The notes below the pieces were generated by a model that was not told the origin of the DNA, did not search any database, and saw nothing but the letters and a program-made list of their open reading frames with translations. Source: a virus (Duplodnaviria > Heunggongvirae > Uroviricota > Caudoviricetes). From it: 4,226 bases of DNA. The first letter of the stretch is position 1; each line of letters opens with the position of its first letter. Position numbers and translations under genes: made by a program. Location: positions 1 through 4,226 of the IMG/VR virus record IMGVR_UViG_2695420739_000014, one strand, 5' to 3'. Below, in pieces: positions 1 through 4,226 of this stretch.

Positions 1-228
1 CGTGGCTGTCTGGAATATGACGTCAGCGCCACCGACATCACCAGCTCGTTTATGGCTATCCGCAAGAGCATGACCAGCAGCGGACGCAGCGCCACCTATG
101 AGGCCAGCCGCAGCGAGGAAGCCAGCCACGCCGACCTCGCCTGGGCGACCATGCATGCCCTGTTAAATGAGCCACTCACCGCCGGTATCAGCACCCCGCT
201 GACATCCACCATTCTGGAGTTTTACTGA
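1..228 (+). CDS. P: Terminase large (ATPase) subunit, C-terminal 75 codons only; the 5' end lies upstream of the window (P2 gpP-like)
   Basis: Frame 1 is open from base 1 to TGA at 226-228 (translation ends ...ASHADLAWATMHALLNEPLTAGISTPLTSTILEFY*). The stop overlaps the portal ATG as TGATG. Position directly upstream of the portal gene and co-oriented matches the P2 P-Q late operon. Not in the ORF track because it has no long start-to-stop ORF inside the window. Confidence 0.75.
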   Translation, partial: RGCLEYDVSATDITSSFMAIRKSMTSSGRSATYEASRSEEASHADLAWATMHALLNEPLTAGISTPLTSTILEFY

Positions 229-1262
229 TGAGCAAGAAAAAAGGGAAAACACCGCAACCTGCGGTAAAAAAAATGGCCGCCAGCGCCCCGAAAATGGAGG
301 CATTCACCTTTGGTGAGCCGGTGCCGGTGCTCGACCGCCGTGACATTCTGGATTACGTCGAATGTATCAGTAACGGCAGATGGTATGAGCCGCCGGTCAG
401 CTTTACCGGTCTGGCAAAAAGCCTGCGTGCTGCCGTGCATCACAGCTCACCGATTTACGTCAAACGCAATATTCTGGCCTCGACATTTATCCCACATCCG
501 TGGCTTTCCCAGCAGGATTTCAGCCGCTTTGTGCTGGATTTTCTGGTGTTCGGTAATGCGTTTCTGGAAAAGCGTTACAGCACCACCGGCAAGGTCATCA
601 GACTGGAAACCTCACCGGCAAAATATACCCGCCGTGGTGTGGAAGAGGATGTTTACTGGTGGGTGCCGTCCTTCAACGAGCCGACAGCCTTCGCACCCGG
701 CTCCGTGTTTCACCTGCTGGAGCCGGATATTAATCAGGAGCTGTACGGCCTGCCGGAATATCTCAGCGCCCTTAACTCTGCCTGGCTGAATGAGTCAGCC
801 ACGCTGTTCCGCCGCAAGTATTACGAAAACGGCGCTCATGCCGGATACATCATGTACGTCACCGATGCCGTGCAGGATCGCAACGATATCGAAATGCTTC
901 GCGAAAACATGGTTAAGTCGAAAGGCCGCAACAACTTTAAAAACCTGTTTCTCTATGCCCCGCAGGGGAAAGCTGACGGCATTAAAATTATCCCGCTCAG
1001 TGAAGTGGCGACGAAGGACGATTTTTTTAATATCAAAAAAGCCAGTGCCGCAGACCTGCTGGACGCGCACCGCATCCCCTTTCAGTTGATGGGCGGCAAG
1101 CCGGAGAACGTCGGGTCGCTGGGTGATATTGAGAAAGTGGCAAAGGTCTTTGTCCGCAATGAGCTTATCCCGTTACAGGACAGGATTCGGGAAATAAACG
1201 GCTGGCTCGGTCAGGAGGTCATCCGCTTTAAAAACTACTCACTGGACACTGACAACGGCTGA
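228..1262 (+). CDS. Q: Phage portal protein (P2 gpQ-like), 344 aa
   Basis: Complete ORF ATG 228 to TGA 1260-1262. GGAG at 216-219 sits 8 nt upstream of the ATG. The translation (MSKKKGKTPQP...EAFTFGEPVPVLDRRDILDYVECISNGRWYEPP...) is recognisable to me as the P2-family portal; length and position next to the terminase gene and about 170 bp from cos agree with P2. Confidence 0.93.
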   Translation: MSKKKGKTPQPAVKKMAASAPKMEAFTFGEPVPVLDRRDILDYVECISNGRWYEPPVSFTGLAKSLRAAVHHSSPIYVKRNILASTFIPHPWLSQQDFSRFVLDFLVFGNAFLEKRYSTTGKVIRLETSPAKYTRRGVEEDVYWWVPSFNEPTAFAPGSVFHLLEPDINQELYGLPEYLSALNSAWLNESATLFRRKYYENGAHAGYIMYVTDAVQDRNDIEMLRENMVKSKGRNNFKNLFLYAPQGKADGIKIIPLSEVATKDDFFNIKKASAADLLDAHRIPFQLMGGKPENVGSLGDIEKVAKVFVRNELIPLQDRIREINGWLGQEVIRFKNYSLDTDNG

Positions 1263-1267
1263 ACATC

Positions 1268-1289
1268 GCCGCCTGCGGGCGGCTTTTTT
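1268..1289 (+). terminator. Rho-independent terminator downstream of the portal gene
   Basis: Perfect 6-bp GC stem GCCGCC (1268-1273) / GGCGGC (1278-1283), 4-nt loop TGCG, followed directly by TTTTTT (1284-1289), starting 6 nt after the Q stop codon. Confidence 0.8.
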
Positions 1290-1431
1290 ACACCCTGTCA
1301 TCACGCCCTCACACGCTCACCACCGCACAAAACACCCCGCAGACACACCAACGCCTCAACGGGCAGACTAAACGCCGTCACGACGCGCTCAGACGCTGAA
1401 AAAATAAAATCAGCACCACCGCCAGCGCGCA

Positions 1432-1450
1432 GTGCTTTCCCCGCCTCGCC
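1432..1450. other. cos cohesive-end site of a P2-like phage (19 nt)
   Basis: GTGCTTTCCCCGCCTCGCC at 1432-1450 is the reverse complement of GGCGAGGCGGGGAAAGCAC, which I recall as the 19-nt cohesive end of phage P2. It lies in a gene-free gap between the portal gene and the converging replication/cargo genes, as in P2. Confidence 0.85.
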
Positions 1451-1540
1451 CGCCCGCTTCATGGGACGCTTTTAATGCAGGAGCATCAGGAGCCTCGCGC
1501 CGCGCCAGCGCTGGTGCTGACTGGCAAATTCTGAAATAAA

Positions 1541-1558
1541 AAACGAATGCAAATTCAT
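1541..1558 (-). terminator. Weak candidate intrinsic terminator downstream of the DUF2971-like gene
   Basis: On the - strand, 21 nt after the TAG stop: 6-bp AT-rich stem AUGAAU (1558-1553) / AUUCGU (1548-1543) with one G-U pair, loop UUGC, then UUUUUUAUUU. The stem is weak, so this is tentative. Confidence 0.3.
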
Positions 1559-1578
1559 GCACCGTATGTATGCAGAGG

Positions 1579-2397
1579 CTATTTAGACTCAAGTTGGATT
1601 TTATAATTTGTAAAATCAGCTTTTGCTGTCATTATTTCAATGCCATTTTTTTTGGCGAAATTTTCAATAAAAACTCGCATATCTCCGGATAGACGCTCGC
1701 CAATAATTATCGCATCAATGCAACATCCTTGCAGGGGAACTTCGATACCACTCTGATGTTCATAAACAGCCTCAGTATCGAGGAAATGCAAGCTTCTTAC
1801 CTCATCCTCTCGCTCCCAATCAGAATGTTTAACAAGTGCAAAATCAAAATTCACAGACACCGGTTCACCACGAGCCATCTCAAGGAGATATTTATAAAAA
1901 TCAACTCTAGGGGCTTTATCGTCATATGTAACATCAAAAAGTTCAATACCCGACCCCTTCAACCTTTCTCTATTATATGCAAAACATATTCCTTTCATTC
2001 CGTTTCCATAATAACCCCACATCAATCTACTATTATAGTTTTTAGTAAAACTTGCTACTGCAACATTCTTTTGAAACTCGATTAGAAAACCACTAGCAAA
2101 ACCGTCCCCCCACACTTCATCAAAGCGTTGATAAATCTTACCAAGCTCATTTTTATCTAATAGTTCTCGAAGCTCCCTCCCTTCACCTGTAATTTTATCC
2201 AATCTATCTATCAGGGTTGATATATCCGACTTATCGAAATACTTAAGGGATTCTTTATCAAAATGATAAAACATGTCAAATGGGTCATTAAGAATGCTAT
2301 TTTTGGAATGCCAAATAGCATTGTTAACAAGCTCATTTATAGTATTGATGTTATCCCCTCTAAACCTGAAGATATGAGTTGCACTTGAAAGAATCAT
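1579..2397 (-). CDS. DUF2971-like protein (272 aa), AT-rich accessory gene; candidate defence/abortive-infection effector, function unknown
   Basis: ORF from ATG (2397-2395) to TAG (1581-1579). AAGGGG Shine-Dalgarno-like sequence 5 nt upstream of the ATG. Spot counts give about 27-42% GC per 60-nt block against about 60% in the portal gene. Motifs I associate with DUF2971: N-terminal ...AIWHSKNSILNDPFDMF... and central ...LMWGYYGNGMKGICFAY... No Walker A P-loop. Confidence 0.8.
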   Translation of the reverse strand: MILSSATHIFRFRGDNINTINELVNNAIWHSKNSILNDPFDMFYHFDKESLKYFDKSDISTLIDRLDKITGEGRELRELLDKNELGKIYQRFDEVWGDGFASGFLIEFQKNVAVASFTKNYNSRLMWGYYGNGMKGICFAYNRERLKGSGIELFDVTYDDKAPRVDFYKYLLEMARGEPVSVNFDFALVKHSDWEREDEVRSLHFLDTEAVYEHQSGIEVPLQGCCIDAIIIGERLSGDMRVFIENFAKKNGIEIMTAKADFTNYKIQLESK

Positions 2398-2463
2398 TCT
2401 GGCCCCTTTTCAGCCGGTCAAGAAAAGTAAGACTCTAACGCCTCACTCGCTCGTTGTTCAACC

Positions 2464-2498
2464 CCGCCAGCACTGAAAGCAAGTTTCAGCACCAGCGG
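2464..2498. repeat. Imperfect inverted repeat in the intergenic gap upstream of the DUF2971-like gene
   Basis: 15-nt arms CCGCCAGCACTGAAA / TTTCAGCACCAGCGG pair at 11 of 15 positions around a 5-nt spacer GCAAG; the inner 6 bp (CTGAAA/TTTCAG, 2473-2489) are perfect. It sits between the small-ORF stop (2511) and the DUF2971-like start (2397). Confidence 0.4.
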
Positions 2499-2510
2499 TG
2501 TTTGCTATGG

Positions 2511-2741
2511 TCAACGTGGCCGCGGAATTATCGGACCTCTCGCTGGTATGAATGATCCATTTTGCTGATTGCTGATATCACGGAGCTTACCGTAATTATC
2601 CCTGACTATTTCGGCACACCCGACCAGCTCGTCAGGCGTCAGATTTTCGTTAACCATAATCTGCTGTAGACGGTGAACAATAGCCATCAGCTTGATATTT
2701 TTAGTTTTATGTTGCGGTATCTCGCCTGGTATTCTGTGCAT
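2511..2741 (-). CDS. Hypothetical small protein (76 aa from the ATG at 2741; the ORF-track start at 2753 is a GTG)
   Basis: ORF ends at TGA 2513-2511. The ATG at 2741-2739 overlaps the TAA stop (2743-2741) of the upstream gene as TAATG, suggesting translational coupling. No strong Shine-Dalgarno sequence and no family recognised (MHRIPGEIPQHKTKNIKLMAIVHRLQQIMVNENLTPDELVGCAEIVRDNYGKLRDISNQQNGSFIPARGPIIPRPR). Confidence 0.4.
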   Translation of the reverse strand: MHRIPGEIPQHKTKNIKLMAIVHRLQQIMVNENLTPDELVGCAEIVRDNYGKLRDISNQQNGSFIPARGPIIPRPR

Positions 2742-3196
2742 TATCCAAGCCACCCGTTTTGCTGTGCACGCTCCATCTGTTCATCTGAATAGTTCCATGC
2801 TCCATCCGTGGCAACCATTGCCCCGCCAGACATCCCCGTCTCTGGTTCATACATAACAGCAAGGCCGAGCTGATGCATAATTTCATGATTAATTCTGAAT
2901 ACCAGACCACGCTCACTAAGTTCTTTCCAGTTCACAATCTCATATGCGCCTGTATTAAGCAGCTCAATACTTAGCAAGACATAATCTTCCAGCCAGTCTG
3001 ACAGGTCAGTAACATCTGTTATCCGGGCTTCAACCTTTCGCCCCGTATACACACCCTGTACCCATTCATGCAAAATCAACGTGTCCCCGCGCTCATAATT
3101 ACGGTCATTTTTCCGAAACTCTGCGCGTTTCTTTCCTTCCAGCACAAGGTCAAAATATTTGGCGTGCAGCTTTACCTCGTGAATTTTTGCCATCAT
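2741..3196 (-). CDS. DUF3850/ASCH-like (PUA-fold) domain protein with C-terminal HExxH motif, 151 aa
   Basis: Start assigned to ATG 3196-3194, which overlaps the TGA stop of the A-like gene (3195-3193) as ATGA; GGAG lies 5 nt upstream. The ORF-track start at 3229 is a GTG inside the A coding region and is less likely. N-terminal MAKIHEVKLHAKYFDLVLEGKKRAEFRKNDRNYERGDTLILHEW... resembles DUF3850/ASCH domains. HEIMH is encoded at 2887..2873. Stop TAA 2743-2741. Confidence 0.75.
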   Translation of the reverse strand: MMAKIHEVKLHAKYFDLVLEGKKRAEFRKNDRNYERGDTLILHEWVQGVYTGRKVEARITDVTDLSDWLEDYVLLSIELLNTGAYEIVNWKELSERGLVFRINHEIMHQLGLAVMYEPETGMSGGAMVATDGAWNYSDEQMERAQQNGWLG

Positions 3197-4226
3197 TTCC
3201 ACTCCATTACTGTTGAGAATCCCGGCCACTCATCAGCGACCGGATACGTGAATTTTTTCCCGTCATAATTTACGGTCGCGCCACGCGCCAGCGCCTCAAG
3301 CTCCCATCGCTGCGGCCTGATACCGTTCTGAGCAAGGTCAACGCGGATACGGGTAATTTGCATTCTTTCCGACCGGGTCAGTCTGGCCGATGGTGCAATT
3401 TCATGTGGTTTTAACGGGCTTCCGTTTCTCTGCTGACGGTTTGGCGTTCGCAGGTCGTGTTTTAATGCGCCCCTGAGCGCCCTCACGACCTCCGGTTCAT
3501 TCCATTCAATAACACCGTCATCAACCAGATTAAGCACGGCTGCGGCGTGCTCAGAAGGTGTGGGAGCCGGTAACGAAGTATCACCACCGGTGAGCTTTCC
3601 ACAGTTATTGACAGGACTCCGAGGCGCGGCGATGCCGCTTTTTAAAGTCAGAGGCTCAACGACCGGAACTTTCGGCACAATGCGCCAGTCCGTCGTTCTG
3701 GTGATATGAATATGACGCGCGCCGAGATGCGGCGCGTAAATGCCGACCACTCTCTCGACTTCTTCCTCGTACTCGTTAACTTCATCCGACGGACTACGGG
3801 CGACCCTGACAGTCTGACAATCGCGCGGGACATTTGCCCCACCCTGCGCGCTGATATACAACGCAAAATCACCACTGTCTGCGGCGGCGCGTGCAGCCTC
3901 GACGCGCTCGTCAAACTCATCAGCAATGCTGACGCCGCGAGGCAATTTGCGTAGTTCACGGTAAGCCCCCATTGTCGGCAGACCAACCGTTTTAAATTGT
4001 GGGATGCGCCACGTTGACGCCCATGCGGTAACAGCCGCAGCAGTGTCTTTCAGCGGTCTGCCGGTATCGTTATCGAGCTGACCATCCAGTGCATAGCCAT
4101 CGATGTTTTTTGAGATGTATTTCGCGATATACCCCGCAGCACCGCCCTGGTTAAGGTGTTTTGCCTGAAAACGGTTTCGCGCGGCTCCTCTTTCGTCGCC
4201 ATCCTCTTTGAGCGCATAGCGACGCA
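3193..4226 (-). CDS. A: Rolling-circle replication initiator endonuclease (P2 gpA-like), C-terminal ~344 codons; the 5' end lies outside the window
   Basis: The - strand frame is open from the window edge (4224) to TGA 3195-3193; the ORF track shows only the part from the internal ATG at 3972. The translation contains GAAGYIAKYISKNIDG with two tyrosines four residues apart, matching the Y-x-x-K-Y active-site arrangement of P2 A as I recall it. If the first tyrosine is Y450, the implied total length is about 761 aa, the size I recall for P2 A. Confidence 0.85.
   Translation of the reverse strand, partial: RRYALKEDGDERGAARNRFQAKHLNQGGAAGYIAKYISKNIDGYALDGQLDNDTGRPLKDTAAAVTAWASTWRIPQFKTVGLPTMGAYRELRKLPRGVSIADEFDERVEAARAAADSGDFALYISAQGGANVPRDCQTVRVARSPSDEVNEYEEEVERVVGIYAPHLGARHIHITRTTDWRIVPKVPVVEPLTLKSGIAAPRSPVNNCGKLTGGDTSLPAPTPSEHAAAVLNLVDDGVIEWNEPEVVRALRGALKHDLRTPNRQQRNGSPLKPHEIAPSARLTRSERMQITRIRVDLAQNGIRPQRWELEALARGATVNYDGKKFTYPVADEWPGFSTVMEWK
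3608..3627 (-). other. Candidate replication origin / A-protein nick site inside the A coding region
   Basis: The - strand reads GCGCCTCGGAGTCCTGTCAA. The P2 ori is known to lie within gene A; I recall the nick-site sequence only approximately, so this is tentative. It is flanked on the + strand by a GC hairpin GCGGC-GAT-GCCGC (3626-3638) followed by TTTTT. Confidence 0.35.

Follow-up and report, generated by a model that had tools for sequence, protein, structure and literature searches.

REP elements of Escherichia coli protect upstream mRNA from 3′ exonucleases, and the early RNase III sites of phage T7 and the sib site of phage lambda act on the stability of the upstream message. Short conserved sequences at the module boundaries of lambdoid phages are reportedly the subject of the modular theory of Susskind and Botstein and of work by Juhala et al. 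in 2000 and Clark et al. in 2001. The region of P2-like phages considered here is said to have been analysed as the "TO region" by Nilsson et al. in 2004 (Mol Biol Evol 21:1) and by Odegrip et al. in 2006, and these two studies may describe a stem-loop. The gpA-portal region of P2-like phages is among the best-studied reservoirs of anti-phage defence genes, which are located at the cos-proximal "tin/old" hotspot (PMC9122126). The mechanism of cargo exchange is called unresolved in hotspot papers that do not mention the element described below (PMC9122126, PMC13586616, bioRxiv 10.1101/2024.10.15.618418).

This element, here termed E, shares features with each of these systems. As in REP/BIME sequences, imperfect GC-rich palindromes of about 35 nt are found just after stop codons in intergenic or 3′-UTR sequence that would be transcribed, can fold in mRNA, may occur in tandem between co-oriented genes and have no U tract. 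E differs from REP/BIME in showing no sequence match to them, in occupying one locus of P2-like phages compared to hundreds of dispersed REP copies, and in having a second hairpin, a conserved loop and no associated RAYT-type transposase. The T7 early intercistronic sites and lambda sib are, like E, phage hairpins of about 20 bp with small irregularities located between or after cistrons, and none of them is a terminator. RNase III sites consist of about two turns of mostly regular double-stranded RNA, and hairpin 1 of E contains 18 pairs and one mismatch, followed by the second hairpin. However, E has no sequence similarity to the T7 and lambda sites, and it lies upstream of the phage 186 terminator t95b rather than overlapping it. 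E shares with the intrinsic terminator t95b a stem-loop form and a position at the 3′ end of one operon, but E lacks a U tract and is a separate feature 20 nt upstream. Integron attC sites and E are imperfect inverted repeats at the 3′ end of co-oriented cassettes that fold in a strand-specific manner and occur in arrays. Finally, E resembles the lambdoid linkers in being a short stretch of conserved sequence that separates exchangeable modules and could support homologous recombination; since E in addition shows structural covariation and strand asymmetry, it is probably more than a homology patch.

The Prophage Segment and Its Genes

The stretch analysed, referred to as the window, comprises 4,226 nt (IMG/VR record IMGVR_UViG_2695420739_000014, positions 1–4,226) and was assigned to a P2-like prophage of the Peduoviridae type by gene content and sequence comparison. 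Its features are listed in Table 1.

Table 1. Positions of genes and sequence features in the window.
Feature	Position	Strand	Remark
Terminase gene, end	to 228	+	
Portal gene	228–1262	+	
Terminator after portal gene	1268–1283		
cos cohesive-end sequence	1432–1450	−	Identical to P2 cosR
Variable (cargo) segment of cos-proximal hotspot	1515–2434		Delimited by homology ends and GC drop to 0.27–0.42
AT-rich cargo gene, 272 aa, DUF2971/PADLOC PDC-S31	1579–2397	−	
Whole conserved element E	2435–2504	−	Homology island; flanks differ between phages
Hairpin 2 (AACAACGAGC...GNGAGGCGUU)	2437–2458	−	Alignment A2 columns 50–73
Full hairpin 1: AAC/GUU closing pairs, A·G mismatch, 15-bp stem	2460–2502	−	Alignment A2 columns 6–48
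Reported repeat: 15-bp stem at the centre of hairpin 1, with its 5-nt loop (RNA: CUUGC)	2464–2498	−	
80-aa ORF (Wphi gp92/PSP3 gp37-like, phrog_11386)	2511–2753	−	
P2 orf91-like gene (DUF3850/ASCH + DUF7415)	2741–3229	−	
Replication endonuclease gpA, C-terminal part	3193–4226	−	
P2 ori 20-mer GCGCCTCGGAGTCCTGTCAA within gpA	3608–3627	−	Reads on minus strand

The orf91-like gene overlaps its two neighbours, gpA at that gene's end and the 80-aa ORF at its start, and the ASCH/DUF3850 domain of the orf91-like protein belongs to a PHROG family labelled RNA-binding. A functional link between E and the orf91 ASCH protein was rejected, as E is also found in PSP3/186-type phages, in which no orf91 lies between gpA and cos and E follows tum or orf97. 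The TGA stop codon of the 80-aa ORF is located 8 nt ahead of hairpin 1, and the cargo gene starts 37 nt past E. The product of this AT-rich gene (GC 0.27–0.42) matched the PADLOC candidate defence family PDC-S31 with an E-value of 5.8e-33, and the gene is a candidate single-gene anti-phage system in the P2 hotspot.

Parts of the window were matched in about 2,250 of 5,426 complete E. coli genomes, and an end-to-end match was found in only five. The closest of these, strain ES5, has the same genes and carries E unchanged; in the other four, identity across the whole window was 97.9–98.4%. A lack of the repeat in close relatives with an identical gene set, which the initial annotation named as a refutation, was thus not observed.

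Structure of Element E

An imperfect 35-bp inverted repeat had been described in the initial annotation, within an intergenic gap between the 80-aa ORF and the DUF2971 gene. The gap (2398–2510) is real, and the coordinates and sequence of the repeat are exact: the arms CCGCCAGCACTGAAA (2464–2478) and TTTCAGCACCAGCGG (2484–2498) surround the loop GCAAG and form Watson-Crick pairs at 11 of 15 positions. The arms were lengthened to 19 nt (2460–2478 and 2484–2502) by a repeat search. Each of the four positions without a Watson-Crick pair is a G-T on the minus strand, which encodes both flanking genes, so that minus-strand RNA would form a perfect 15-bp stem with 11 Watson-Crick and four G-U pairs. 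The predicted fold of this RNA has a free energy of −20.6 kcal/mol (z −5.5; 0/200 shuffles as stable), compared to −10.8 kcal/mol (z −2.5) for the plus-strand RNA, in which A-C mismatches interrupt the stem. Folded as DNA, the minus strand reached −14.6 kcal/mol (z −2.7) and the plus strand −8.9 kcal/mol.

The hairpin is the most stable 35-nt local RNA fold on either strand of the window. As DNA, the repeat is one among 18 comparable repeats in the window, and a hairpin at least as stable was present in 2 of 12 whole-window dinucleotide shuffles. Judged from the window alone, the hairpin is not beyond chance, and its stability by itself is not significant. The repeat was confirmed to be real by sequence comparison, the same hairpin being kept with compensatory changes across many P2-like phages that differ in both flanks.

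The reported repeat forms the central stem of the first of two hairpins within E, which is about 70 nt long. On the sense strand, E follows a stop codon and reads AAC-G-CCGCCGGUGCUGAAA-CUYGC-UUUCAGUGCUGGCGG-G-GUU-G, continued by AACAACGAGC-NNN-GCGAGGCGUU-AG. Hairpin 1 has a stem of 19 positions (18 pairs and one mismatch) and a conserved CUYGC loop; the single mismatch is A·G in the window and usually G·G in the family. Hairpin 2 is weaker than hairpin 1, with an internal loop and tandem G·A/A·G mismatches. In about 16 sequences GA is changed to UC (U-A/C-G), by which Watson-Crick pairing is restored, and one locus (L091) has hairpin 2 as a perfect 8-bp version. The window copy of hairpin 2 is degenerate: its apical loop has 2 nt, and a single-sequence fold gives AACG/CGUU only. 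The hairpins are separated by one unpaired base (G49), and coaxial stacking would be possible.

The invariant core of E is CUGGCGGGGUUGAACAACGAG, and C25 and U26 of the loop are also invariant. The loop, the 3′ arm and the linker are conserved beyond structural need, which points to a binding partner. A covariance model of the element (R1) scored the window copy with 84.8 bits on the minus strand vs 25.5 bits on the plus strand, and the covariance models of Rfam 15, run against the window, gave no match at E-values up to 1.

Conservation of the Fold on One Strand

The structure statistics were calculated from 83 distinct copies of E. In hairpin 1, 96.5% of the cells were paired; when the 3′ partners were slid by 1–3 columns, 28–45% of the whole-structure cells were paired. 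Five hairpin 1 pairs were changed on both sides, examples being CCGCC/GGCGG to CCACC/GGUGG and, at columns 18–36, G-U to C-G to A-U. The whole-structure covariation score was 0.119 against 0.087 and was reached by 0 of 500 shuffles, a control that overstates significance since many of the sequences are related. RNAalifold, unaided, predicted the same two helices as alignment A2, and diverged second copies of E (e.g., in L038) were found to keep the hairpin through many compensatory changes. Hairpin 1 contained 196 G-U cells and 13 A-C cells (about 15:1), and the sense fold was the more stable one in 81 of the 83 copies (mean −27.1 vs −18.1 kcal/mol). As judged from the alignment, these results show that a strand-specific double hairpin is under selection.

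In a comparison of pairwise identity, E reached 0.83 and gpA coding DNA about the same (0.82), the apparent conservation of E being inflated because the sample was partly gathered with a pattern derived from E itself. A coding role of E was rejected: substitutions follow pairing and not codon periodicity, and the flanks differ.

Distribution, Position, and Orientation

In BLAST searches of phage genomes, P2-like phages with other cargo remained homologous to the window through the repeat and up to 2435, and some phages shared only a block of about 79 nt with it. A pattern scan of viral contigs yielded 120 loci, 117 of them with the whole block, in 86 distinct versions. When one genome per species was scanned, E was found in 15 Enterobacterales species of the genera Citrobacter, Enterobacter, Kluyvera, Trabulsiella, Erwinia, Rosenbergiella, Symbiopectobacterium, Scandinavium, and Escherichia, the remaining matches being attributed to chance. 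E. coli genomes having E carry it in 1–3 places each. In a set of 80 loci sampled by the gpA protein alone, and hence chosen independently of E, the element was present in 46 and absent from 34. E is also absent from the genomes of P2, where a gap of 38 nt separates orf91 from the convergent tin gene, and of L-413C. The element is therefore dispensable.

The position of E relative to genes was shown to be fixed. All 50 covariance-model matches in the gpA-anchored sample were co-oriented with gpA. A stop codon of a sense-strand ORF was located 0–17 nt upstream of hairpin 1 in 73 of 81 distinct contexts, and most copies are followed 1–130 nt later by the start of a co-oriented gene; the next gene was co-oriented in 40/45 cases of the gpA-anchored sample and in 80/112 of the pattern-based sample. 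Between E and the portal stop codon there were about 415 nt in loci free of cargo and over 4,100 nt at the other extreme. Arrays of the type gene-E-gene-E occur, some of them after orf91/orf92, with all copies co-oriented.

Such an array was found in PSP3 (L004) with the order tumB-E-gp37-E-gp38, the E copies being located at 608–700 and 1033–1086. In phages of this type, two E copies 405 nt apart flank the gp37/orf92-like ORF in a cassette-like manner, and the upstream copy has the Watson-Crick form (CUCGC/GCGAG) of hairpin 2. The two-copy cassette arrangement was also found at the loci L022, L029, L044, L045, L074, L098, and L112.

Phage 186 and the Relation to Terminators

In phage 186 a single copy of E was found at 30339–30416 (98 bits), between the orf97 stop codon and t95b, which is annotated as "p95 transcript terminator" and lies 20 nt downstream of E. 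By this placement E is within the span of the annotated p95 transcript. Plasmid-expressed orf97 is noted to block infection by phage 186, and orf97 may thus itself be cargo. The phage 186 record has no feature at E, which fills nearly the whole gap between orf97 and t95b (L161:3840–3964; 30339–30463).

No U tract was associated with the element: at least five T in the next 8 nt were found in 0/90 copies after hairpin 1 and in 0/89 copies after hairpin 2, and a terminator scan of the window gave no call at E. Loci in which the same orf97-like gene is not followed by E have another structure at that position: a canonical terminator in L171 and an unrelated hairpin in L176. In cargo-free phages (L127:5072–5140, L161:3918–3964), a weak intrinsic terminator (ACCGGC...GCCGGUUUUU; t95b in phage 186) is present about 20–30 nt past E. 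In the window, the terminator segment downstream of E has been replaced together with the cargo.

Element E at the Cargo Junction

When the window was aligned with loci carrying other cargo, homology of the gpA side set in at 2435 in 53 of 59 cases; some 68 alignments were confined to E (roughly 2435–2504). On the cos side, homology ends at about 1480–1519 (55 loci) or at 1570–1580 (14 loci). One of the readings offered in the initial annotation, a recombination scar left by insertion of the AT-rich gene, is borne out as far as the place is concerned, the homology ending right beside E. The repeat itself is no by-product of that insertion, since E is a structure maintained by selection and lies on that side of the junction which the phages have in common.

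The sequences downstream of E fall into more than 40 unrelated classes and those upstream into about 20; a given cargo start was combined with as many as five different upstream genes, and the converse was also seen. The variable columns of the 5′ arm track the upstream flank, and from hairpin 2 on the association with the downstream flank is stronger; the switch is gradual. This pattern suggests that crossovers have occurred inside or beside the invariant core. Junctions are also found elsewhere: in relatives without E, homology breaks at 2591, ~2970, 3113, and ~3200, and in some loci shared leaders of varying length reach past E. In two viral contigs (L162 and L184), gpA is identical to that of the window in one and 98% identical in the other, and both split from the window inside the 80-aa ORF, at 2591, to continue into a different and longer cargo region (5.9 kb) without E. 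The near-identical gpA combined with this break indicates a very recent exchange at a junction other than E.

Proposed Role of Element E

The aligned loci show that E is structured on one strand, conserved with covariation, fixed in where it lies and how it is oriented, and situated at the junction; its role in RNA and in recombination is what we infer. In the interpretation that we propose, E would form the last part of the message from the genes immediately upstream and would then fold in that RNA. Here the upstream message would be the early operon extension orf91-orf92, and in phage 186 the SOS operon tum-orf97. E would act in cis as a structured 3′-UTR or intercistronic module, its stable stem either blocking 3′-to-5′ exonucleases or serving as a processing site of the RNase III type, so that the upstream phage message would gain a defined and protected end, uncoupled from whatever cargo follows. 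As a secondary effect, the core CUGGCGGGGUUGAACAACGAG, being conserved among phages that otherwise differ, would offer a short patch of homology that, together with the cos/portal side, could allow cargo to be swapped by homologous recombination. On our analysis, we give a cis-acting RNA structure for end protection or processing that doubles as a homology patch for cargo exchange an even chance of being correct. A transcript-processing or attenuating hairpin was among the readings of the initial annotation; the hairpin in a transcript is the favoured option, given the sense-specific fold, the position 0–17 nt past stop codons, the co-orientation with the operon and the annotated phage 186 transcript, and the roles in processing or attenuation are putative. 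As phage 186 has a canonical terminator 20 nt later, E would not be needed there for protection of the 3′ end.

The main rival is that E is a hairpin of single-stranded DNA on the strand displaced in gpA-driven rolling-circle replication, where it could be a lagging-strand priming signal, a helicase-loading signal or a hotspot of template switching. The ori 20-mer, 1.1 kb upstream of E, also reads on the minus strand. We take the strand nicked by P2 gpA to be the one on which ori reads, in which case the displaced strand is the strand on which E folds. Since the minus strand is thus probably also displaced during replication, strand asymmetry does not separate RNA from single-stranded DNA. In addition, the minus strand was also favoured when folded as DNA, and DNA hairpins tolerate G-T and tandem G-A mismatches. 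However, three or four G-T pairs per 15 bp are far costlier in DNA than in RNA, some phages have two copies, each after an ORF, and P2, L-413C, and the 34 close relatives without E (of 80) replicate all the same. Besides, the tight placement after stop codons and the replacement by ordinary terminators fit a role in RNA better. Weakened by this pattern and by the dispensability of E, a role in single-stranded DNA is considered unlikely.

The combinatorial shuffling of upstream genes and downstream cargos around E, together with the alignments in which E alone is shared between different flanks, could also be explained by a passive homology linker with no molecular function, spread as a module boundary by recurrent recombination. 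That E is no more conserved than gpA coding DNA would agree with this. A linker of this kind is nevertheless quite improbable, because compensatory and wobble-keeping changes, as well as G-U cells outnumbering A-C cells 15:1, indicate that selection acts on the fold of a single strand and not on sequence identity, and because E has a fixed orientation and a conserved loop.

Slightly less probable again is a site of site-specific cassette recombination similar to integron attC, with strand exchange at a fixed point in folded single-stranded DNA. According to this explanation, defence genes would be captured and exchanged in the invariant core, near G/TTGAAC, of the folded minus strand by gpA or by a host factor that acts on the strand displaced in rolling-circle replication. 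It would account for the co-oriented gene-E-gene-E arrays with their 405-nt period in PSP3-type phages, for the sharp junctions at both ends of E, for strand-specific folding, for the change in linkage, to the upstream flank before the invariant core and to the downstream flank after it, and for the Trabulsiella loci in which an orf92-like gene, E and cargo stand apart from any prophage. The 3′ base of hairpin 1, GTTGAAC, fits the attC core GTTRRRY, but after GTT such a match is expected by chance in 1 of 16 cases, and its 5′ partner reads (N)NNAAAC and not RYYYAAC, leaving only the AAC/GTT pair. Hairpin 1 differs from attC also in being a continuous helix with a single G·G mismatch, with neither extrahelical bases nor an unpaired central spacer, and E is conserved in sequence whereas attC conserves structure. 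In the annotated contexts, only P2/186 genes and no IntI or attI were found beside E arrays. The only recombinases of these phages are Int, a P2/186-type integrase whose gene is far from E, and the HUH protein gpA, and the known sites of both do not resemble E. The many hotspot junctions elsewhere and the shared leaders that extend beyond E by varying lengths also argue against strand exchange at one fixed point.

The remaining explanations, including pure chance, are disfavoured. An intrinsic (Rho-independent) terminator of the upstream operon would fit the GC-rich stem of 15–19 bp right after a stop codon, its −20.6 kcal/mol and the canonical terminators that occupy the same place where E is absent; it is made very improbable by the lack of a U tract after either hairpin, by the terminator scan, by the separately annotated t95b of phage 186 and by the co-oriented genes that soon follow most copies. 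Least credible is an operator for a dimeric regulator of the downstream gene (an operator was among the readings of the initial annotation), since the dyad repeat upstream of the cargo gene is conserved irrespective of which of the more than 40 downstream classes follows, is broken at 4/15 positions in the window, is symmetric on one strand only throughout the family (196 G-U vs 13 A-C), unlike a dyad-symmetric site in double-stranded DNA, varies so as to keep pairing rather than half-site identity, and is not consistently accompanied by any regulator gene.

As for the structured RNA that could double as a homology patch, about half of the close P2-type relatives sampled have E at the cargo junction, where it is a precise landmark for delimiting cargo. 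It is a candidate for insulating the phage message from arbitrary foreign genes, a candidate for the place where recombination swaps cargo genes and, with a working covariance model in hand, a candidate new RNA family. If E is only a stabilising hairpin, it would be a modest addition. If it is a recombination site, the view of hotspot turnover would change. A cassette site of the kind outlined above would amount to an integron-like mechanism without an integron integrase and would explain the fast turnover of the P2 cos-proximal hotspot.

Other Motifs and Genomic Contexts

The absence of a convincing sigma-70 promoter nearby, pointed out previously, agreed with a promoter scan. A promoter in E (TTGAAC, 18 nt, TAGAGT) had only 8/12 matches and no call in the scan, and it was rejected; the sequence that would serve as its −10 box spans the junction and varies between cargo classes. 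A second candidate, TTGACC/AATGAT at 2421–2393, was rejected as it overlaps the start codon. A relation to the put-like antiterminators of HK022, which also have two hairpins, was rejected as E is at the end of an operon and not upstream of terminators.

The cos end GGCGAGGCG was compared to hairpin 2, with which it shares the 8-mer GCGAGGCG. In consensus copies this 8-mer lies in the 3′ arm of hairpin 2 (2437–2446), and the window copy reads GTGAGGCG. As the cos ends of the 186 type differ at the shared 8-mer (they read GGCGTGGCG), the likeness is probably a coincidence. Similarly, the 7-mer CGCCTCG shared between ori and antisense E was discarded, being on the opposite strand, not kept in the window and expected by chance at about 0.1.

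All contexts inspected (plasmid matches and genome loci) were P2-like except for two Trabulsiella loci. In the chromosomes of T. guamensis and T. odontotermitis (L155:3212–4371, L137), an orf92-like ORF and E are followed by an uncharacterised gene of 261 aa, and no gpA or portal gene was found within 8 kb. The Trabulsiella loci represent a fragment of the hotspot module that is not embedded in a recognisable prophage. The neighbours of E there include a DDE transposase fragment, a RelE/HTH toxin-antitoxin pair, T6SS VasI and Hcp fragments, fieF, and pfkA.

In several E. coli records (NZ_AP027599.1 and NZ_CP147084.1, among others) the whole-window match starts at record position 1253, and other E. 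coli chromosome records have an E copy at 2619–2691. Several E. coli assemblies thus appear to be rotated to begin at the prophage terminase gene, an artefact of assembly orientation.
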